Shown here: positions 1,629 through 11,259 of the stretch, piece by piece | How positions within the stretch are numbered: position 1 is the stretch's first letter | Layout: the number at the start of each line of letters is the position of its first letter | From: an uncultured Bacilli bacterium | GTDB taxonomy: Bacteria > Bacillota_I > Bacilli_A > RF39 > UBA660 | Direction: 5' to 3' | Length of the DNA stretch: 64,000 nucleotides | Assembly: GCA_934085675.1 (NCBI GenBank) | Contig: CAKOHH010000005.1 | Coordinates: 899 to 64,898 of the forward strand | The notes under the pieces: model-generated | The model's database searches: none | The model's input: only the letters and a program-made list of their open reading frames with translations | Told to the model about the DNA's origin: nothing | Translations under genes and position numbers: made by a program

Positions 1629-1925
1629 ATGAATATGCAAAGTATAATGGCACAAGCTCAAAGAATGCAACGTGACATTCAAAAAAAGAAAGATGAAATA
1701 AATCAAAAATTATTTCCCGGGAAATATGAATTTGTAGAAGTTATCTTAAATGGTAAAAAAGAATTGACAAAAATAACAATAAATAAGGATAACTTAGATA
1801 AAGAAGATATTGAAATGTTAGAAGATTTTATTGTTCTAGCGCAAAAACAAGCTTTAGCAGATATTGATAAAGAAATTCAAAGTAAAATGGGCCAATATGC
1901 TGGGATGCTTGATGGTTTAATGTAA
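1629..1925 (+). CDS. ebfC: YbaB/EbfC nucleoid-associated protein
   Basis: 98 aa with an N-terminal MQ-rich helix (AQAQRMQRDIQK). Canonical position between dnaX and recR. Confidence 0.9.
   Translation: MNMQSIMAQAQRMQRDIQKKKDEINQKLFPGKYEFVEVILNGKKELTKITINKDNLDKEDIEMLEDFIVLAQKQALADIDKEIQSKMGQYAGMLDGLM
1711..1726. repeat. Palindrome copy 1: TATTTCCCGGGAAATA (16-bp perfect)
   Basis: Read directly. Lies inside ebfC and encodes LFPGKY. Confidence 0.95.
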
Positions 1926-1926
1926 T

Positions 1927-2535
1927 ATGAATTCTGTATATCCTAATAGTTTAGAAAGTATCATTGAATTTTTTAAAAAGTTTCCAGGTATTGGTGAAAA
2001 AAGTGCAGAGAGAATGGCTTTATCTATATTGAATATCCCTTTGGGTGAAATACAAATAGCAAGTGATGCTTTAGTTAAAGCACGTGAAACCCTTCATCCT
2101 TGTGATATCTGTGGCAATTTGACAGATTCTTTAAAATGCAATATTTGTGAAGATAAAACTAGAAATCAAAATTTAATATGCGTAGTTGAGGATTACAAAA
2201 GTATTTACGCTTTTGAAAAAGCTGGAAATTTTAAGGGTGTCTATCATGTATTAAATGGACTAATATCGCCTATAGATGATATTGGAGTGGACGATATTAA
2301 TTTGTCATCACTCATAAGAAGAATCCAGAAATTAGAAAATCCAGAACTTATTTTAGCTTTAAAAGGAACCATAGAAGGTGAAACCACAACATTATATATC
2401 AAAAAGATATTTGAAAATCAAAATATAAAAATATCAAGGTTGTCTTATGGATTACCGAGTGGAGCCGAGATTGATTATTTAGATATGTCAACAATAGAAA
2501 AAGCGTTAAAGGATAGAAAAATAATTTCAGAATAA
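1927..2535 (+). CDS. recR: Recombination protein RecR
   Basis: C4 zinc finger CDICGNLTDSLKCNIC, Toprim-like C-terminal half, dnaX-ebfC-recR synteny. Confidence 0.95.
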   Translation: MNSVYPNSLESIIEFFKKFPGIGEKSAERMALSILNIPLGEIQIASDALVKARETLHPCDICGNLTDSLKCNICEDKTRNQNLICVVEDYKSIYAFEKAGNFKGVYHVLNGLISPIDDIGVDDINLSSLIRRIQKLENPELILALKGTIEGETTTLYIKKIFENQNIKISRLSYGLPSGAEIDYLDMSTIEKALKDRKIISE

Positions 2536-2585
2536 AATCTGAAATTTTTTCATATTCTGTAACAAAGATAAAAGGAAAATGACAG

Positions 2586-2771
2586 ATGAAAAAATTGATA
2601 AATATACTTCGAAAAGTAGTATGGGCATTTTTATTACTTTATGGTTTGAATTATTTTATATCGTCCTTACATATTTATATACCTATTAATTTTATTACTG
2701 TCAGTATCGTTACATTACTAGGTTTACCAGGGCTTTCTGCTTTAATTATTTTGTTTTTTATAGTAAAATAA
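2586..2771 (+). CDS. bofA: BofA-family small membrane protein (pro-sigma-K processing inhibitor-like)
   Basis: 61-aa two-TM protein. HIYIPINFITVSIVTLLGLPGLSALI resembles the B. subtilis BofA C-terminal motif. Sits downstream of recR as in Bacillus. Confidence 0.6.
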   Translation: MKKLINILRKVVWAFLLLYGLNYFISSLHIYIPINFITVSIVTLLGLPGLSALIILFFIVK

Positions 2772-2777
2772 TTAAAG

Positions 2778-3623
2778 GTGATGTCTATGACGGAAACATC
2801 TGGAATACAGCAATTATATCAAGAATACATGAGTGAGCATCTTTCTCATGCTTTTTTGCTTGAAACAAATAATCAAGAAAAATGTTTGAAAGAATTATTA
2901 CAATTTTTGAGTAAAATTAACGAAGTTGAAAATGAACAAGAAAATATTAAATTAAATAAACTTATTTTAAATGAAACATTACCTAGTTTAGTAGTTATAA
3001 GACCAGATGGTAATTCAATAAAAAAAGAACAAATTATAAATTTGAAAACATCTTTTCAAACAAAACCAATTTTTTCTAAGTATAATATGTATGTTATACT
3101 AAATGCTGAAGATTTAAATCCGTCTAGTGCTAATACGATTTTAAAATTTTTAGAAGAACCAGAAGATTTTATATTAGGTTTTTTTATTACAGATAACAAA
3201 GAAAATATAATAGATACTATTCGCAGTCGGTGTGAGATTATCAGAGTGAATTATGAACAAAATCATGAAAATGACATACCTAAAGTTTGGGAAGATTTAG
3301 CGATAAATTATATTAGGGAGTATGAAATTATAGGTGATAATACTTTACTTTATAATAAACAAGTTATTTTGCCACTAATTCACGATAAAAAAGAATTAAA
3401 ATACTTATTTCAGGCAATCTTTAATACTTATTATGGAATATATATTTGTAAATTAAAAAATCTAGAATTAGAAGAAAAGTATAGTAGTTTAAATTTTGTT
3501 ATGAAAAAAGATAAAAATTATTTTTACAATCAAGTTAAATATATTGCTAATTTACTTGATAATCTTAATTTTAATTTAAACACGTCATTTGTTTTGGATT
3601 GTTTTGTATTGGAAAGTAGGTGA
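2778..3623 (+). CDS. holB: DNA polymerase III delta' subunit
   Basis: Clamp-loader-like HAFLLE, LKFLEEPE and SRCEII motifs with no Walker A. Precedes ricT as in Bacillus. Start is ambiguous (GTG 2778, ATG 2781 or 2787). Confidence 0.8.
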   Translation: MMSMTETSGIQQLYQEYMSEHLSHAFLLETNNQEKCLKELLQFLSKINEVENEQENIKLNKLILNETLPSLVVIRPDGNSIKKEQIINLKTSFQTKPIFSKYNMYVILNAEDLNPSSANTILKFLEEPEDFILGFFITDNKENIIDTIRSRCEIIRVNYEQNHENDIPKVWEDLAINYIREYEIIGDNTLLYNKQVILPLIHDKKELKYLFQAIFNTYYGIYICKLKNLELEEKYSSLNFVMKKDKNYFYNQVKYIANLLDNLNFNLNTSFVLDCFVLESR

Positions 3624-3627
3624 TTAA

Positions 3628-4413
3628 ATGAACATTTATGAAGTTATCTTTAAAGATAAGGGAAAAGGTTATTATTTTAAAATTGAAAATGTTTTTATTC
3701 CCAATAAAGTAACGGTTATTGTTGAAACTGAAAAAGGCTTGCAATTCGGAAGGGTTGTCAAAAAAATAACGGACACTTCTATTAAAGAAGAAGACATTAA
3801 AAATATAATTAGAATTGCTACAAAAAAAGATTATGAACAATATTTAAAAAATTTAAAAGAAGCTGAAATAGCTCTACAAACTGCTCGAGAAGAAGCCAAA
3901 AAGAGCAAATTAAATATGAACTTTATAGACGCTTCATTTACATTTGATAGAAAACAATTATTATTTAATTTTTATGCTGATCAAAGAGTAGATTTTAGAG
4001 AACTTGCTAAAATATTAGCAGCAAAGTATAAAACACGTATTGAACTACGACAAATTGGCGCTCGAGATAAAGCAAGTGAAGTAGGCGGTATTGGCATTTG
4101 CGGACGTAAATTATGTTGTGCGGGATGTTATAAAGTAAATGAATCAATTACTATGCAAATGGCTAAAAACCAAAATATTGCTTTAAATCCATCTAAAATA
4201 AATGGCGCATGTGGTAGATTACTTTGTTGCTTATCTTATGAAGATAAAGAATATGTGAGATGTTCTAAACAATTACCTAGTATTGGAGATACTATAAAAA
4301 CACCTAATGGTGAAGGAAAAGTAGTAAGCATTGATATTTTAAATTTTAATTGTAAAGTTTTAGTAGGTGAAGAAATAGTTGAGGTTAAAATAAACGATGA
4401 AAAAGACGCTTAA
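3628..4413 (+). CDS. ricT: PSP1-domain protein RicT/YaaT (stage 0 sporulation protein)
   Basis: PSP1 core with Cys clusters GICGRKLCCAGCY and CGRLLCC. holB-yaaT synteny. Confidence 0.9.
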   Translation: MNIYEVIFKDKGKGYYFKIENVFIPNKVTVIVETEKGLQFGRVVKKITDTSIKEEDIKNIIRIATKKDYEQYLKNLKEAEIALQTAREEAKKSKLNMNFIDASFTFDRKQLLFNFYADQRVDFRELAKILAAKYKTRIELRQIGARDKASEVGGIGICGRKLCCAGCYKVNESITMQMAKNQNIALNPSKINGACGRLLCCLSYEDKEYVRCSKQLPSIGDTIKTPNGEGKVVSIDILNFNCKVLVGEEIVEVKINDEKDA

Positions 4414-5107
4414 TTGGTTATTCGATTATCCTGCGCTTAAAGTTTATCAATACGAAGAAGCATTTAAATTTTCCTTAGATTCTATTCTTTTATTTGAATT
4501 TGCTCAGATAAAAAAGAATGATAACAAGATTATGGATTTTTGTACGGGTAACGCTGTTATTCCTATCTTAGTTTATAATAAATACAAAAAAGATGTTGTT
4601 GGGATAGAGTATCAAAAGGAAATATATGATCTAGCTGTTGAATCTGTAAAGCAAAATAAGATGGAAAAGCACATTTCTTTGTTTCATGATACTGTATTAA
4701 ATGTTAAAAATTATTTCCCGGGAAATAATTTTGACGTAATTTTGTGTAATCCACCTTATTTTAAGTACGAACAAACGAGCCATATTAATAAAAATGAATT
4801 AAAAAGTGTTGCCAGACATGAGATTACCTTAAAATTAGAAGATATTTTTATAATGGCAAAATACTTATTGAAAGATAATGGCAAAATATATATGGTTCAT
4901 ATTCCAAGTCGAATTGATGAACTTATTGTTTACGCTAATAAATATGGATTTGCCGTAAAAGAATTACAATTTATTCAGGCTAAAGAAAATGCTAAGCCAG
5001 AAATAGTGTTGTTGACATGTGTAAAAAGTGGCAACTTTGGAACAAAAGTATATGCTCCTATTAATATACATAATTTAACAACGTATCAAAATATATTTAG
5101 GAGATGA
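4397..5107 (+). CDS. SAM-dependent N6-adenine methyltransferase, tRNA1(Val) m6A37 (YfiC/YabB-like)
   Basis: NPPY motif (ILCNPPYF), DFCTGNA SAM-binding loop, YabB position after yaaT. Confidence 0.75.
   Translation: MKKTLNWLFDYPALKVYQYEEAFKFSLDSILLFEFAQIKKNDNKIMDFCTGNAVIPILVYNKYKKDVVGIEYQKEIYDLAVESVKQNKMEKHISLFHDTVLNVKNYFPGNNFDVILCNPPYFKYEQTSHINKNELKSVARHEITLKLEDIFIMAKYLLKDNGKIYMVHIPSRIDELIVYANKYGFAVKELQFIQAKENAKPEIVLLTCVKSGNFGTKVYAPINIHNLTTYQNIFRR
4707..4732. repeat. Palindrome copy 2: AAAATTATTTCCCGGGAAATAATTTT (26-bp perfect)
   Basis: Read directly. Lies inside the methyltransferase CDS and encodes KNYFPGNNF. Confidence 0.95.
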
Positions 5108-5664
5108 AAAATATGAAAATGATAGTTGGTCTAGGTAATCCTGGAAAAGAATATGAAAATACAAGACATAATGTTGGTTTTATGATATTAGATTCTTTTA
5201 TAAAAGATTTTAAACTAGAAAAAAAATTTCAAGCAATGATTAAAGTGTCGGATGTAGCAGGGGAAAAATGTTTGTTTGTGAAACCTTTAACATTTATGAA
5301 TGAAAGCGGTTTAAGTGTTGGTAAAATTGCTAAATACTATAATATATCATGTTCTGATATATTTGTAATTCAAGATGATATGGATTTACCATTTGGCAAA
5401 ATTAAACTAAAAATAAATAGTAGTGCTGGTGGTCATAATGGAATTAAATCAATTATTAATGCTTTATCATCTAATTCTTTTGCCCGTTTAAAAGTAGGAA
5501 TTGCTCATGACAAAGATAATGATGCTATAAAACATGTATTAGGGCATTTTTCTAAAACAGAAATGGAATTTTTTGAAAAAAATTATGACCATTTTCAAGA
5601 AATAATTGTTTCATATATTAGAAATGGTATAGATGTAACAATGAATCGTTATAATACAAAGTAG
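5104..5664 (+). CDS. pth: Peptidyl-tRNA hydrolase
   Basis: GLGNPG...YENTRHNVGF N-terminus. ATGA overlap with the upstream gene. An AGGAG 9 nt upstream favours the alternative start at 5113. Confidence 0.95.
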   Translation: MKNMKMIVGLGNPGKEYENTRHNVGFMILDSFIKDFKLEKKFQAMIKVSDVAGEKCLFVKPLTFMNESGLSVGKIAKYYNISCSDIFVIQDDMDLPFGKIKLKINSSAGGHNGIKSIINALSSNSFARLKVGIAHDKDNDAIKHVLGHFSKTEMEFFEKNYDHFQEIIVSYIRNGIDVTMNRYNTK

Positions 5665-5672
5665 GTGTTAAC

Positions 5673-8600
5673 GTGAAAAAATTTGAAGAATTTACATACG
5701 AAAATGGTTCAATTATTGAAGGCTTGACTAAAGAGTTATCGTATCGTTATATTATTAATTATTTTGATACTCAAGAAAATTCTCTTTTAATTGTTACCTC
5801 TAATTTATATGATGCAAATAAAATTCAAAATTCTTTACAAACATACGAAGAAAATGTTTTCCTTTTTCCAATGGATGATTTTTTAACCTCACTTGCTTTG
5901 GCGGTCTCACCCGAATTAAAACTAAAACGTTTAGAGACTCTTGAGAAAATTCAAAATAACAAATGTATTGTGGTTACTAACATGATGGGATATTTAAAAT
6001 TAAATACCTCTTTAAAAGAACAAAATTCACTATATCAAACTCTTAAAACTAATACAGATGTTAATCGTGATTCATTAGTAGAAATTTTTGAAAAACTAGG
6101 TTATCAAAGGGATTCTATGGTTACATCAACTGGAGAATATGCGGTAAGAGGATTTGTTTTAGATATTTTTTTAGTAGATGAAAAACATCCAATAAGGATT
6201 GAATTTTTTGGAGATACAATTGAAAGTATCCGTTATTTTGATGAAAATACACAACGTACCATTGAAAAAATAGATGAAATCGTTTGCAAACCTGTTGATG
6301 AAATCATTACCGAAAATACCAGTTCTTTATTAGATTATATGCCTAATAGTACAGTTTTTTACTATGATTATCCATTACTTATGACGGCATATACTAAATT
6401 GTTAGAAGAAAAGAAAACATATTTAGAAGAACAAAATTTAGAAGATAAAAAATATTTTTATTCGTTCGAAGAACTATTACCTACTAAAGAACTTTTTATT
6501 AACACCGTAGCTAATGAAATGCAAAAAAAGAAAGTTCATAGTTATAAAACGACTGATATTGAAAATTTTAAAGGTGATTTTAAAAAGTTAAAATCTTTTG
6601 TAGATAAAAATATAGCCTTAAAAAAAACAATTGTTTTTTTCCTTTCAACCAAAGAACAGATTGAAGAAATTAAAGATTTATTTAATGAAAATGTTGTATT
6701 AACAAACGAAAATGAACTTTTTTTAGAAAAAATAAATATTGTTCAAAGTAAAATTAACAAAGGTTTTATCTGGGATGATTTAGTTGTTATCTCAGAAAAT
6801 GATATTGAAGAAATAAAAGAAAAAATAACTTATAAAAATAATTTACATATTGGTAAAAAAATTCGTAACCTAGACGCGATTGCAATTGGAGATTATGTTG
6901 TTCATAGAAATCATGGTATTGGTATTTATGCAGGTGTTGTTACTTTAACGATTGGTGGACTTAAAAAAGATTATTTACAAATAGAGTATTTTGGAAACGA
7001 TAAAGTCTATGTTCCAGTTGAAAAAATATCAAGTATTTATAAATACAGTGATAAAGATGGAATGAAACCTCAGATAAGTAAGCTTAATTCAACAGCTTGG
7101 CAAAGAAAAAAACAAGCTTTACAAAAGAAAATTAAAGATATTTCAGGAGAGCTTATCAAGCTTTATGCTGAAAGAAATAATATTGAAGGGGAAGCTTATA
7201 AAGATTTTGAAGAAGAAACTATTTTTGCCAATGATTTTACATATGAACCAACCAAAGATCAACAATTTGCTATTGATGATGTTTTAAAAGATTTGGATTC
7301 TAAAGTTCCTATGGATCGTTTACTATGTGGAGACGTTGGTTTTGGCAAAACAGAAGTTGCTTTTCGTGCCATGTTTAAGGCAGTATGTAATAATAAACAA
7401 GTAATGTATCTTTGTCCAACAACAATTTTATCTAAACAACAATATGAATCAGCATTAGATAGATTCAAAAATTTTCCTGTGGAAATAAGATTATTTAATC
7501 GATTTACTTCAACTAAAGAAGCCAACGAAATTATTGAGGATTTAGCCAGTGGAAAAATAGATATTGTTTTTGGAACACATCGTTTACTATCTGATAAAAT
7601 TAAACCTAAAAAACTAGGATTGCTGGTTATTGACGAAGAACAACGTTTTGGTGTTACTCATAAAGAGAAAATAAAAAATTTAAAAAAAGATGTTAACGTT
7701 TTAACCCTATCTGCAACACCGATACCTCGTACTTTAAAGATGAGTTTATCAGGTTTAAGAGATTTATCAATTATAGATACACCACCGGTTAACAGATATC
7801 CTATTCAAACATATGTTATTCCAGAAAGTGATATGATTGTGAAAGATGCGATTTATAAAGAATTAGGACGAGATGGCCAATGCTTTATTTTATATAATCG
7901 TGTTGAAACTATTGAAAAAGCTGTCGAGAAAATACATGATTTGGTGCCAGAAGCGAGAATACAGTATGCTCATGGTAGATTAAATAAAATCGAGTTAGAT
8001 AATATTATGTCTGATTTTATTAATCATAAATTTGATATACTTGTTAGTACAACAATTATAGAAACAGGTATTGATATTCCAAACGCTAATACTTTAATTA
8101 TTTATGATGCCGATTGTTTTGGCTTGAGTCAACTTTATCAATTAAGAGGAAGAGTTGGTAGAAGTAATAAAATTGCCTATGCTTACTTACTTTATAGTAA
8201 AGAAAAAATGCTTAATGATATTGCAGTAAAAAGATTACAAGCCATTCGTGATTTTACAGAATTAGGAAGCGGTTATAAAATTGCTATGCGAGATTTATCT
8301 ATCCGTGGAGCAGGTGATTTATTGGGAAGTGAACAAGCAGGTTTTGTTGATACAGTAGGAATCAGTCTTTATATGAAAATGATAGAAGAGGAAATGAGAC
8401 GCCTTAAAGGTGAAAATGTTGAAACTGATGAGGAAAGTGAATCATTAGTTAAGGTAGAAACTCATATTTCAGATCAATATGTTTCCGATGAAGAAGTAAA
8501 AATCGAAATCCACAAAATGATTAACGAGATAGATTCTTATCAGAAATTAGAAGATGTTCGTAAAAATTTAGAAGACCGTTTTGGTAAAATAACCAAAGAA

Positions 8601-8891
8601 ATGGAAATCTACATGTATGAAGAATGGTTTGAAAAACTAGCAGAACGCTTGAAAATTACCAAAGTTATTCAAAATAATCTTTATGTTTTGCTTTGGTTAC
8701 CAGAAGAAACTTCTAATAAAGTAAAAGGAGATAAATTATTTTTACAGGCTTTCAATATTAATCAAAAATTTGAAATTAAATATGAAAATAATCAAATTGG
8801 TATCAAATTAAATATTGTAAATAATGAAAAACATTTTCTTTATTATATTGTACCTTTACTTCAAAAAATCGCGGATGATTTATCTGTATAA
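5673..8891 (+). CDS. mfd: Transcription-repair coupling factor
   Basis: 1072 aa. CarD-like RNAP-interaction region, SF2 helicase motifs GDVGFGKTEVA and DEEQRFG, TRCF C-terminus. pth-mfd-spoVT synteny. Confidence 0.97.
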   Translation: MKKFEEFTYENGSIIEGLTKELSYRYIINYFDTQENSLLIVTSNLYDANKIQNSLQTYEENVFLFPMDDFLTSLALAVSPELKLKRLETLEKIQNNKCIVVTNMMGYLKLNTSLKEQNSLYQTLKTNTDVNRDSLVEIFEKLGYQRDSMVTSTGEYAVRGFVLDIFLVDEKHPIRIEFFGDTIESIRYFDENTQRTIEKIDEIVCKPVDEIITENTSSLLDYMPNSTVFYYDYPLLMTAYTKLLEEKKTYLEEQNLEDKKYFYSFEELLPTKELFINTVANEMQKKKVHSYKTTDIENFKGDFKKLKSFVDKNIALKKTIVFFLSTKEQIEEIKDLFNENVVLTNENELFLEKINIVQSKINKGFIWDDLVVISENDIEEIKEKITYKNNLHIGKKIRNLDAIAIGDYVVHRNHGIGIYAGVVTLTIGGLKKDYLQIEYFGNDKVYVPVEKISSIYKYSDKDGMKPQISKLNSTAWQRKKQALQKKIKDISGELIKLYAERNNIEGEAYKDFEEETIFANDFTYEPTKDQQFAIDDVLKDLDSKVPMDRLLCGDVGFGKTEVAFRAMFKAVCNNKQVMYLCPTTILSKQQYESALDRFKNFPVEIRLFNRFTSTKEANEIIEDLASGKIDIVFGTHRLLSDKIKPKKLGLLVIDEEQRFGVTHKEKIKNLKKDVNVLTLSATPIPRTLKMSLSGLRDLSIIDTPPVNRYPIQTYVIPESDMIVKDAIYKELGRDGQCFILYNRVETIEKAVEKIHDLVPEARIQYAHGRLNKIELDNIMSDFINHKFDILVSTTIIETGIDIPNANTLIIYDADCFGLSQLYQLRGRVGRSNKIAYAYLLYSKEKMLNDIAVKRLQAIRDFTELGSGYKIAMRDLSIRGAGDLLGSEQAGFVDTVGISLYMKMIEEEMRRLKGENVETDEESESLVKVETHISDQYVSDEEVKIEIHKMINEIDSYQKLEDVRKNLEDRFGKITKEMEIYMYEEWFEKLAERLKITKVIQNNLYVLLWLPEETSNKVKGDKLFLQAFNINQKFEIKYENNQIGIKLNIVNNEKHFLYYIVPLLQKIADDLSV

Positions 8892-8938
8892 AAAAAGTTC
8901 ATCTCTCCAAACTAATGAGGTAGAATGGAGTGAATATC

Positions 8939-9445
8939 TTGAAGGAAACAGGTATTATTCGAAAGGTCGATGAATTAGGCAGAATTGTTTTACCTAAAGA
9001 AATTCGTAAAACTTTAGGAATAAAAGATGGTGAAGATTTAGAAATATATATTAAGGATAAAGCCATTTATTTACAAAAGTATTCTCGTTTATGGGCATTA
9101 AAAGATATTTCTGAAATATTAATTCAATATGCTTTAGAAGAAATGAATTTAAATATTATTATTACAGACAAAGAACAGATATTAGCAAGTTTTAATAGGG
9201 AATTAGTTTATCGAAAATTAGATATAAAATTTGAAAATCTCTTAAACTCATTTGAAATTTATGAGTCAATCACAGAAGAACAATTTTTTTCTTTAAATGG
9301 TTTTTGGTTTGTAAAGCCAATTAATGTACATGGGGATATTATAGGTTTTCTAATTCTTTATTCCTTGAATAAAATAGAAGAATATATGAAGAATTTTCTA
9401 TCATTTTTAGAAAAAATAATAATAAATAAAATTGACATTGTTTAA
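8939..9445 (+). CDS. spoVT: Stage V sporulation regulator SpoVT (AbrB-type SpoVT/AbrB N-domain plus GAF-like C-domain)
   Basis: KETGIIRKVDELGRIVLPKEIRKTLGIKDGEDLEIY matches the AbrB/SpoVT swapped-hairpin domain. TTG 8939 lies 9 nt after GGAG; the ORF track begins at GTG 8930. Confidence 0.85.
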   Translation: MKETGIIRKVDELGRIVLPKEIRKTLGIKDGEDLEIYIKDKAIYLQKYSRLWALKDISEILIQYALEEMNLNIIITDKEQILASFNRELVYRKLDIKFENLLNSFEIYESITEEQFFSLNGFWFVKPINVHGDIIGFLILYSLNKIEEYMKNFLSFLEKIIINKIDIV

Positions 9446-9459
9446 TTTTGTGCTAGAAT
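9432..9459 (+). promoter_or_regulatory. Sigma-A-type promoter for the metG leader
   Basis: TTGACA (9432-9437), 16-nt spacer, then extended -10 TGcTAGAAT (9454-9459). Confidence 0.6.
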
Positions 9460-9464
9460 TATGT

Positions 9465-9666
9465 TAATCAACGACGAAGGAAAGAGTAAATAATAGAACT
9501 TTGAAGAGAGTTTATGGTCGGTGCAAATAAATATTGTTTTATTATTGAAGATGGCTCTGGAGTTGAATCGTATTTCTAGCGTTAAAAGAAAAAGAGCATG
9601 GTTATAATCATGAATAAAGGTGGTACCACGGGGTAAACTCGTCCTTTAGTTCATGATTTTTTTTAT
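9465..9666 (+). promoter_or_regulatory. T-box riboswitch leader, Met specifier (ATG)
   Basis: Stem I elements (GAAGAGAG bulge, distal GGTGCAA). ATG in the specifier position (TTTATGG). T-box sequence AAAGGTGGTACCACGGGG at about 9616-9633. Terminator stem AATCATGAA/TTCATGATT followed by a U-tract. Sits upstream of metG. Confidence 0.85.
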
Positions 9667-9667
9667 T

Positions 9668-9691
9668 AAATTATTTCCCGGGAAATAATTT
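9668..9691. repeat. Palindrome copy 3: AAATTATTTCCCGGGAAATAATTT (24-bp perfect), intergenic
   Basis: Read directly. Sits between the T-box terminator U-tract and the metG SD. Identical 24-mer to 4708-4731. Confidence 0.95.
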
Positions 9692-9711
9692 TTAGGAAAG
9701 GAAGAGGAAAA

Positions 9712-11259
9712 ATGAAACCAAAATACTATATTGCAACAGCGATAGCCTATGCTTCTGCTAAACCTCATATTGGTAATACTTATGAAATTGTTTTAGCAGA
9801 TTCTATAGCACGTTATAAAAGAAGTCGAGGATTTGATGTTTATTTTCAAACAGGAACTGATGAACATGGGGAAAAAATTGAACAAAAAGCTATTTCCGCA
9901 GGAATATCTCCAAAAGAATATGTCAATAATATTTCCCGGGAAATAAAAAATATATGGGATATCATGAATACTAGCTACGATAAGTTTGTCAGAACGACTG
10001 ATGAACATCATAAAAAGGTTGTTCAACATATTTTTGAATATTTATATCAAAAAGGTGATATTTATTTAGGGCAATATAATGGTATGTATTGTACACCTTG
10101 TGAATCTTTTTGGACAGAATCGCAACTTGTAGATGGAAAATGTCCTGATTGTGGTCGTGCTGTAGAACCAAGATGTGAAGAAGCTTACTTCTTTAAAATG
10201 AGTAAATATCAAGATAAATTAATAGAATATATTGAAACACATCCAGAATTTATTCAACCAGTTTCCAGAAAAAATGAAATGATTAATAATTTTTTGAAAC
10301 CAGGACTACAAGATTTATGTGTATCGCGTACTACTTTTGACTGGGGAATAAGAGTTCCATTCAATAACAAACATGTTGTTTATGTCTGGATTGACGCCTT
10401 AACAAATTATATAACTAATATCGGATATGATGTTAATAATGAGTCAGAGGAATTTAAGAAATGGTGGCCTTGTGATTTACATCTAATAGGTAAAGACATT
10501 ATTCGTTTTCATACTATTTATTGGCCAATTTTATTAATGGCCCTAGACTTGCCATTACCTAAGCAGGTATTTGGACATCCATGGCTTCTTATGAATAACG
10601 ATAAAATGAGTAAAAGTAAAGGAAACATCCTATATGCTGATGATTTAGTAAATCTATTTGGTGTTGATGCTATCCGTTATTATCTTCTTCATGAAATTCC
10701 ATTTCAAAATGATGGCACGATAAGTTATGAGCTTATTATTGAAAGAATAAATAGTGATTTAGCTAATATTTTGGGAAACTTAGTAAATAGAACTATTTCT
10801 ATGTCTCAAAAATATTTTGATGGTGAGATAACTAATAAGAATATTAATGAAACTTTAGATGAAGAATTTATCGAATCTATTAAAAATTTACCATCTGAAG
10901 TGGATAAAGCTATGGAAAAATTAGAAATAGGTAACGCGATTGATAAAATCTTTGATGTTTTAAGAAAATCAAATAAATATATTGACGACACTACTCCTTG
11001 GAGTTTAGCTAAAGATGATACGAAAAAAGAAAGGTTAGAAACTGTTTTGTATAATTTACTTGAAAGTATTAAAGTTTGTGGTAGTGAATTAATGCCATTT
11101 TTACCGGATACATCCAAAGAAATATTAAGACAAATTAATACAGAGTTATCTAATAATTTTGAAACTTCTAATAAATATAATGTTTTAACTCCAGAACCAA
11201 TTTTTATGAGAATTGATACAGCTAAAAAACTAGAAGAAATAAATGCCAAAAGGTCGTAA
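9712..11259 (+). CDS. metG: Methionine--tRNA ligase (short form, no C-terminal tRNA-binding domain)
   Basis: HIGN (HIGH-type) motif, KMSKS, Cys knuckle CTPCE...CPDCG. Preceded by a Met T-box. Confidence 0.97.
   Translation: MKPKYYIATAIAYASAKPHIGNTYEIVLADSIARYKRSRGFDVYFQTGTDEHGEKIEQKAISAGISPKEYVNNISREIKNIWDIMNTSYDKFVRTTDEHHKKVVQHIFEYLYQKGDIYLGQYNGMYCTPCESFWTESQLVDGKCPDCGRAVEPRCEEAYFFKMSKYQDKLIEYIETHPEFIQPVSRKNEMINNFLKPGLQDLCVSRTTFDWGIRVPFNNKHVVYVWIDALTNYITNIGYDVNNESEEFKKWWPCDLHLIGKDIIRFHTIYWPILLMALDLPLPKQVFGHPWLLMNNDKMSKSKGNILYADDLVNLFGVDAIRYYLLHEIPFQNDGTISYELIIERINSDLANILGNLVNRTISMSQKYFDGEITNKNINETLDEEFIESIKNLPSEVDKAMEKLEIGNAIDKIFDVLRKSNKYIDDTTPWSLAKDDTKKERLETVLYNLLESIKVCGSELMPFLPDTSKEILRQINTELSNNFETSNKYNVLTPEPIFMRIDTAKKLEEINAKRS
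9930..9945. repeat. Palindrome copy 4: TATTTCCCGGGAAATA (16-bp perfect)
   Basis: Read directly. Lies inside metG and encodes ISREIK, a third reading frame relative to the motif. Confidence 0.95.

Follow-up and report, generated by a model that had tools for sequence, protein, structure and literature searches.

Why should AT-rich DNA carry one GC-rich palindrome four times within 8.2 kb, and not again? This question is raised by a 64-kb stretch of contig CAKOHH010000005.1 from an uncultured Bacilli bacterium (the window, meaning the whole stretch that was analysed), which has a GC content of ~28% and a GC skew that is positive throughout. The hexamer CCCGGG occurs at 1716, 4717, 9677 and 9935, against a chance mean of 0.77 per window, and four or more copies appeared in none of 100 dinucleotide-preserving shuffles. 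An exact copy of the 16-mer TATTTCCCGGGAAATA encloses all four; 2.7e-5 copies of it are expected in the window under an order-1 Markov model, and no further match was found in the 64 kb with up to three mismatches permitted. Consecutive sites, which we call NBS1 to NBS4 (Table 1), are 3.0, 5.0 and 0.26 kb apart. NBS2 and NBS3 extend to perfect palindromes of 26 and 24 bp with the 24-mer AAATTATTTCCCGGGAAATAATTT in common, and the likeness between copies ends at 24–26 bp. An initial annotation of the window had reported these four copies, the two palindrome extents and the shared 24-mer, had put the chance expectation of CCCGGG below one per 64 kb, and had seen no other CCCGGG in the remainder; all of this holds on the sequence, the last point by a scan of the full 64 kb.

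The motif is, judged by its sequence, an already-known one, the Noc-binding site (NBS), here as part of what appears to be a variant Noc–NBS system. The Noc–NBS nucleoid occlusion system of Bacillus subtilis was reportedly studied by Wu and colleagues in 2009. For the definition of the site (14-bp core ATTTCCCGGGAAAT, 16-bp form TATTTCCCGGGAAATA, and Noc spreading over 8–10 kb as a further criterion of the class) we used Adams et al. 2015 (PMC4331003), Jalal et al. 2020 (PMC7383237) and Jalal et al. 2021 (bioRxiv 2021.02.11.430593). The DNA-binding domain of B. subtilis Noc was crystallised on the duplex GGATATTTCCCGGGAAATATCC (Jalal et al. 2020, PMC7383237), which includes the 16-mer of the window exactly, and the statement in the initial annotation that no motif of this form had been described was therefore wrong. 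In the Noc literature cited here, the protein nucleates at the 16-bp NBS and then spreads in a manner dependent on cytidine triphosphate (CTP). Specificity for NBS over parS resides in residues Q173, K179, K184 and R201 (Caulobacter ParB numbering), where Q173 contacts adenine 1 and R201 cytosine 6 of the half-site, and a lone lysine at 179 or 184 is enough as the permissive residue (Jalal et al. 2020, PMC7383237). The window motif has both of the base pairs by which NBS and parS are told apart, A/T at positions 2/15 and C/G at positions 7/10, and these are invariant across 92 sites of the lineage. Four of the 16 positions of the motif are unlike canonical parS (TGTTTCACGTGAAACA), and they are exactly these two symmetric pairs. 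A search of the 64-kb window for parS (TGTTNCACGTGAAACA) with up to two mismatches found none.

The four palindromes are thus very probably NBS, serving as nucleation sites for a Noc-type ParB paralogue encoded after rsmG. This identification combines the identity of the 16-mer with the experimental NBS, a Noc-type protein in the same species, conservation at the DNA level and confinement to the origin of replication (oriC), which are taken in turn below.

The cognate protein was sought in the window and in contigs of the same and related species. No ParB/Noc or ParA gene was found within the window by tblastn, using approximate Spo0J and Soj queries. A contig from an ENA gut metagenome (L083), which has an identical RecR, belongs to the window's species at 99.86% nucleotide identity, and a contig from a Hadza metagenome (L360) overlaps the window-species contigs L081–L084 at 99.3–99.5% nucleotide identity and is hence from the same species. 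This Hadza contig carries a ParB-family gene for a protein of 386 residues (L360:10001–11161) directly after mnmE-mnmG-rsmG. In the sister species (92–94% nucleotide identity), a single ParB-family gene likewise lies directly 3′ of mnmE-mnmG-rsmG, where B. subtilis has noc. In the window's organism, the gene is ~6.7 kb from dnaA, on the side opposite the window. The sister-species orthologue (L101:397–1557, minus strand) is 97% identical to the 386-residue protein, the N-terminal 200 residues being identical, and the structure and family scans were run on this copy.

The scans place the protein nearest to Noc. Its top PDB matches are Geobacillus Noc (7NG0 and 7NFU, E 2e-55), with Thermus Spo0J ranking behind, and its best NCBIfam model is TIGR04285 (nucleoid_noc). 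It has the N-terminal CTPase domain of ParB and a ParB-type helix-turn-helix (PF02195 and PF17762; TIGR00180 at 182 bits against a cut-off of 58), and its arginine box is GERRYKA, as against GERRxRA in Noc and ParB. The helix-turn-helix and recognition region (GVSQSTIANKLRLLNL...GERHAR) yields the specificity residues Q-K-N-R, a combination found in all of the nearest 120 homologues; 120 ParBs of sister clades, of the canonical rsmG-noc-soj-spo0J type, have R..G or R..S at the specificity positions. Public annotation of the relatives, where it names the protein, says only 'ParB/RepB/Spo0J family'. As a separate observation on the lineage ParBs, 13 of the 120 have serine rather than glycine at position 201, within SMSHAR (P0014–P0017, P0020, P0021, P0025, P0034, P0058, P0062, P0091, P0111 and P0116); serine or threonine at this position marks variants that bind parS and NBS alike (Jalal et al. 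2020, PMC7383237).

The sites themselves are conserved as DNA. The exact 16-mer of NBS2 is found in 21 of 57 distinct methyltransferase orthologues, down to 45% protein identity, and that of NBS1 in 15 of 92 distinct EbfC orthologues. NBS4 is retained in 6 of 84 distinct MetG orthologues, all of them with at least 75% MetG identity, and is the youngest site; the place of NBS3 is also occupied in L001 and L002. Orthologues without NBS2 have an unrelated local peptide (YLLPE, YFSIE or WLKGK in place of YFPGN) and the same length as those with it, which shows that the site is not an insertion, and the EbfC and MetG alignments contain no inserted residues at the sites. The codons used are rare: CCC and GGG at NBS1 have relative uses of 0.067 and 0.060, TCC and CGG at NBS4 of 0.042 and 0.035, and the rare codons across the NBS codings are CCC, GGG, CCG, CGG and TCC. 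Exact NBS codons are used by 42 of 43 orthologues that share the peptide (codon-usage probability 1.7e-4 to 1.8e-3), where the 43 are related by descent and are not 43 independent events, and synonymous sites are saturated at these divergences. Taken together, the exact 16-mer in such distant orthologues, the three codon phases, the rare codons and the constant length indicate that the motif is maintained by selection on DNA, irrespective of coding context. The initial annotation had argued along the same lines, from the different codon phase in each gene (1, 0 and 2) and the lack of extra residues, that selection acts at the nucleic-acid level and that no element had been inserted, and the orthologue alignments agree with it on each count.

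Across the lineage, the hexamer and the site are nearly synonymous. Protein anchors were used to retrieve 1.74 Mb of DNA from the lineage; of the 100 CCCGGG in it, 96 lie within ATTTCCCGGGAAAT and 92 within the full 16-mer, and the flanks of the sites favour AAAT...ATTT. The four CCCGGG outside NBS compare with 4.7–9.3 expected, and other GC-rich palindromes also occur at expectation.

Table 1. Candidate Noc-binding sites in the window and the features that contain or precede them.
Feature	Position	Strand	Description
NBS1	1711–1726	n/a (palindrome)	Exact 16-mer in ebfC, codon phase 1, peptide LFPGKY
NBS2	4712–4727	n/a	Exact 16-mer in TrmN-like methyltransferase gene, codon phase 0, peptide YFPGNN; palindrome 4707–4732
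NBS3	9672–9687	n/a	Exact 16-mer in metG leader, in the interval between T-box terminator and ribosome-binding site; palindrome 9668–9691
NBS4	9930–9945	n/a	Exact 16-mer in metG, codon phase 2, peptide ISREIK
ebfC/ybaB (host of NBS1)	1629–1925	+	TIGR00103, 60 bits against a cut-off of 49
Small S-adenosylmethionine (SAM) methyltransferase gene, TrmN/YabB-like (host of NBS2)	4397–5107	+	Weak TrmN, PrmC and HemK matches
metG T-box leader	9465–9649	+	RF00230, 112.9 bits against a gathering score of 93
metG (host of NBS4)	9712–11259 (start codon 9712)	+	NF008900, 749 bits

The sites sit beside oriC. Same-species contigs with identical RecR give the gene order dnaN-comK-recF-gyrB-gyrA-[spacer]-tadA-dnaX-ebfC-recR-bofA-holB-ricT-methyltransferase-pth-mfd-spoVT-like-metG. 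Base 1 of the window falls just within dnaX, ~10 kb from dnaA, and the distance from NBS1 to the start of dnaA is ~11.9 kb as measured on the sister-species contig L101. In the window's species, four NBS fall within 8.2 kb and the other ~74 kb of the 82 kb examined (L360 included) holds none; for four uniformly placed sites, a span this short has a probability of 0.004. Among relatives, the distribution was read from the genes around NBS-bearing stretches (loci of up to 21 kb) and not from complete genomes: marker genes of the oriC region are present in 116 of 120 listed stretches bearing the 22-mer form of the NBS (from species-representative genomes). For the bare 16-mer in metagenome contigs, 50 of 56 AT-rich stretches among those listed are at oriC, as against 6 of 64 from other Firmicutes with at least 33% GC, which served as the internal control (Fisher p = 4e-20). 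On this sampling, sites of the lineage appear to be overwhelmingly confined to roughly 30 kb (±15–20 kb) around oriC.

The region next to the window holds a second class of site. In the same species, the gyrA-tadA spacer contains tandem perfect copies of canonical parS with a period of 40–41 bp; the array (L083:7198–7457) ends 618 bp 5′ of window base 1, and NBS1 lies 2.3 kb 3′ of it. The number of parS copies ranges from 5 to 14 by sample, with other instances at L084:6947–7457, L086:18–399 and L101:17277–17817. Several contigs of metagenome-assembled genomes (MAGs) break inside the parS array. The array resembles sopC of the F plasmid, with the difference that the one here is chromosomal. 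In many relatives, NBS and parS alternate in one gyrA-tadA array, such as that of L278:2429–3700, where nine NBS and seven parS recur with a period of ~125 bp; composite arrays also occur at L169:2263–2905 (complete 1.52-Mb MAG OZ006970.1) and L219:1117–1510, and L168:45–435 is a pure NBS array of seven copies with a 62-bp period. The adjoining parS array and the alternating arrays in relatives suggest that the window sites are the downstream part of a composite, origin-proximal loading region for ParB and Noc.

The gene context of noc differs between clades. A convergent gene for a class A penicillin-binding protein (PBP) comes next after noc in the window's clade, whereas sister clades have rsmG-noc-soj-spo0J (L232:5114–8000 and L356:3680–6882). 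No soj-spo0J pair was found within 10 kb beyond noc (L360:11168–21161). The parS-type ParB of the window's species was found neither in the window nor in the 10 kb beyond noc, and a scan with the sister-clade Spo0J matched that clade only. The 120 matches listed by a protein search for it, of at least 66% identity, are all from sister clades; one of these (P0080) comes from another species, where it is part of a canonical rsmG-noc-soj-spo0J operon.

Several observations weigh against equating this protein and its sites with classical Noc and NBS. Its TIGR04285 score of 287 bits is under the cut-off of 315, with the C-terminal 35 positions of the profile unmatched, and residue 184 is N and not K; by the rule of Jalal et al. 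2020 (PMC7383237), it is enough to have lysine at one of 179 and 184. The sites form a tight cluster at oriC, whereas in the model organisms ~70 or 41 sites are spread across the half to two-thirds of the chromosome nearest the origin. The protein is without the N-terminal amphipathic membrane helix (residues 1–15), and without helix alpha2 as well; this membrane helix is extremely conserved in all Noc examined and is needed for the function of B. subtilis Noc (Adams et al. 2015, PMC4331003).

The shortened N-terminus recurs among relatives. Residue 5 of the protein aligns to Noc residue 26–28, in-frame stops lie directly 5′ of the start in ~35 relatives, and the bases just 5′ of the start look like a ribosome-binding site, as back-read from the translation only. 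Independent gene calls put merely 16 residues before PNRFQPR in 116 of the 120 homologues. The protein also has a disordered, low-complexity linker of ~150 residues with the motif KFFNFLE, which is invariant in all 120 homologues and absent from the ParBs of the lineage. By sequence, KFFNFLE is similar to the canonical membrane helix at its K/R-F-F core, and it might be an element for binding the membrane or a partner that has moved within the protein. In the literature, we found no description of a helix-less Noc or of interleaved NBS/parS arrays.

How would such a system work? By homology, Noc-type dimers would nucleate at the four NBS, with Q173 reading the A:T pair at 2/15 and R201 the C:G pair at 7/10, and binding would lead to CTP-dependent closure of the clamp and to sliding or spreading over several kb. 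The spacing of the sites and the parS array 2.3 kb away suggest a continuous Noc domain of ~15–20 kb on the right flank of oriC, beside and overlapping the ParB–parS complex. We infer binding, spreading and cellular output alike; for the output, our best guess is that freshly replicated origin DNA is marked for division-site or segregation control, and the origin-biased NBS gradient known from Bacillus and Staphylococcus would then be taken to an extreme here. The lack of the canonical N-terminal membrane helix makes the output uncertain, and the chances for classical membrane tethering are about even.

The alternative that survives best accepts the sites as genuine NBS and dispenses with nucleoid occlusion: the helix-less Noc would be a second origin-proximal, ParB-like clamp loader that, together with the parS array, organises, positions or segregates origins or restrains DnaA. 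We put this a little short of an even chance. It is favoured by the absence of the helix, seen in ~35 relatives as well as 116 of 120 homologues from databases, and by NBS within ~30 kb of oriC that are interleaved with parS in many relatives, and the Noc of Staphylococcus aureus controls replication initiation (Pang et al. 2017, PMC5540599). Against this, the invariant KFFNFLE could substitute for the helix, and sites at the origin only fit occlusion as well. A related proposal, which we advance tentatively as one that could well prove mistaken, is that Noc in this lineage is a helix-less ParB paralogue whose NBS, within ~30 kb of oriC and interleaved with parS, form a composite origin domain of two paralogues and not a chromosome-wide occlusion system. 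Such a Noc could be a derived repurposing for origin positioning, segregation or initiation control, possibly via KFFNFLE; it could equally be a surviving intermediate between ParB and Noc, in which the new specificity first appeared at the centromere, and dispersal of the sites and gain of the helix came later.

Comparison with described systems places the NBS reading in context. With B. subtilis Noc–NBS, the system shares an identical 16-bp site, a ParB paralogue gene directly after rsmG, the residues Q173, K179 and R201, a ParB/Srx N-terminal domain with a GERR box, and origin-proximal sites. It differs in its protein, which has neither the membrane helix nor helix alpha2, is ~100 residues longer (the low-complexity KFFNFLE linker), has N at 184 and scores below the TIGR04285 cut-off. 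Here, four sites fall in 8 kb beside oriC (with tandem arrays in relatives), as opposed to ~70 scattered sites in B. subtilis at ~1 per 60 kb, and the window's clade has no soj-spo0J after noc. S. aureus Noc, which is tied to replication-initiation control, has the same NBS core, a restriction to the origin-proximal region with minor peaks around dnaA, and no ParA (PMC5540599). Unlike the system here, with sites within ~±15–20 kb, S. aureus has 41 NBS within ±700 kb (Pang et al. 2017, PMC5540599) and keeps the helix. ParB–parS is alike in having a 16-bp palindrome of the same architecture (12 of 16 bases match), near oriC and often intragenic, bound by a member of the CTP-dependent clamp family; it is unlike in its discriminating pairs (G/C and A/T in parS, A/T at 2/15 and C/G at 7/10 in NBS), and the parS arrays, 0.6 kb 5′ of the window, are a separate class of site. 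Escherichia coli SlmA–SBS, mentioned in PMC4331003, is a functional analogue, with palindromes that are kept out of the terminus and flag the nucleoid for the control of division, although SlmA is an unrelated TetR-family protein and its site has a different sequence.

The remaining explanations concern the identity of the motif and fare far worse. The initial annotation had listed an operator of a dimeric DNA-binding protein first among its candidates, and in the sense of a site for such a protein this was the best-supported one. An operator in the narrower sense, for an unrelated dimeric transcription factor controlling ebfC, the methyltransferase gene and metG, is very unlikely: the motif is a perfect palindrome of operator size and one copy stands in the metG leader, but three of the four copies are intragenic, the sequence is that of the NBS and co-occurs with a Noc-type helix-turn-helix, and in relatives the motif forms tandem arrays with parS in the gyrA-tadA spacer.

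We give hardly any weight to a restriction–modification or methylation target of SmaI/XmaI type, which the initial annotation had also raised and which finds no support in the lineage data. The core is indeed a SmaI/XmaI site and one copy lies within a methyltransferase gene. However, an enzyme recognising a hexamer would not impose the identical 4-bp flanks on both sides seen in 96 of 100 lineage CCCGGG, nor the full 16-mer in 92, and CCCGGG outside NBS is undepleted, as given above. The methyltransferase occupies a conserved housekeeping slot after ricT; its family matches, all weak and below cut-off, are to RNA or protein methyltransferases, with none to DNA cytosine methyltransferases, and confinement of the sites to oriC also speaks against a methylation target. 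The initial annotation had proposed a check for a restriction–modification gene; the search was limited to the ten named proteins in the first 11 kb of the window, and there is none among these.

Equally little credit can be given to a structural element, be it a DNA cruciform, an RNA hairpin or a terminator: the 24–26 bp palindromes allow a 10-bp hairpin and a T run follows the leader copy, but the metG leader folds like its shuffles (z = -0.06), a structure needs no fixed sequence, whereas the same 16-mer stands at 92 of 100 sites, three copies are intragenic, and no stem-preserving compensatory changes were seen in relatives. An inserted palindromic mobile element, or a signal for DNA uptake or recombination, would account for recurrence in several reading frames and is just as improbable, given that orthologue lengths are unchanged, that the copies are alike over 24–26 bp only, and that uptake signals are genome-wide whereas these sites lie at oriC and accompany a Noc-type protein; the hairpin or cruciform and the uptake or recombination signal of the initial annotation are both unsupported.

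To a specialist on ParB and Noc, the motif alone is ordinary textbook material, and it is the setting that gives it value. A Noc-type protein, annotated only as 'ParB family', without the anchor thought universal and essential, and with its sites beside parS at the origin, occurs in hundreds of gut Bacilli species. This amounts to a natural experiment on how a duplicated ParB came to recognise different DNA and to serve a different function in the cell, and on what Noc does without its usual membrane helix. It also supplies an annotation rule for AT-rich MAGs, in which nearly every CCCGGG would be an NBS, and which aids the naming of both NBS and Noc.

Further observations concern the neighbourhood of the sites and the lineage. 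The host identities proposed in the initial annotation (EbfC/YbaB, a small methyltransferase, the metG leader and MetG) were confirmed by family matches and a T-box match. NBS3 begins 23 bp 3′ of the T-box leader and lies 5′ of the metG start codon. Noc bound at NBS3 or spreading over this interval (window 9640–9711) could in principle influence metG expression. In the leader transcript, a 10-bp hairpin is possible at NBS3 with a U run after it, and the folding is no better than that of shuffles. In one relative, a module resembling a mobile element lies ~8.5 kb 3′ of metG (L004:18199–20729), with a 258-residue open reading frame, a ParA and a divergent ParB of GHRR type; this ParA/ParB pair was set aside on account of its mobile-element-like context and has no relation to the chromosomal system.

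The relatives' lineage is probably the RF39/RFN20/ML615J-28 group treated in PMC10868615. It is often labelled Tenericutes or Mycoplasma and has sporulation-associated genes, namely bofA-like (window 2586–2771), spoVT-like (window 8930–9445) and spoIIR (L360:18294–18800), which with the class A PBP are consistent with walled, possibly sporulating reduced Bacilli. Contigs from the oriC region of this lineage (gyrB-gyrA-tadA-dnaX, ~28% GC) also occur in MAGs titled Muribaculaceae, Bacteroides helcogenes and Clostridium (L178, L180, L181, L194, L195, L198 and others), which probably reflects misbinning in the public records.

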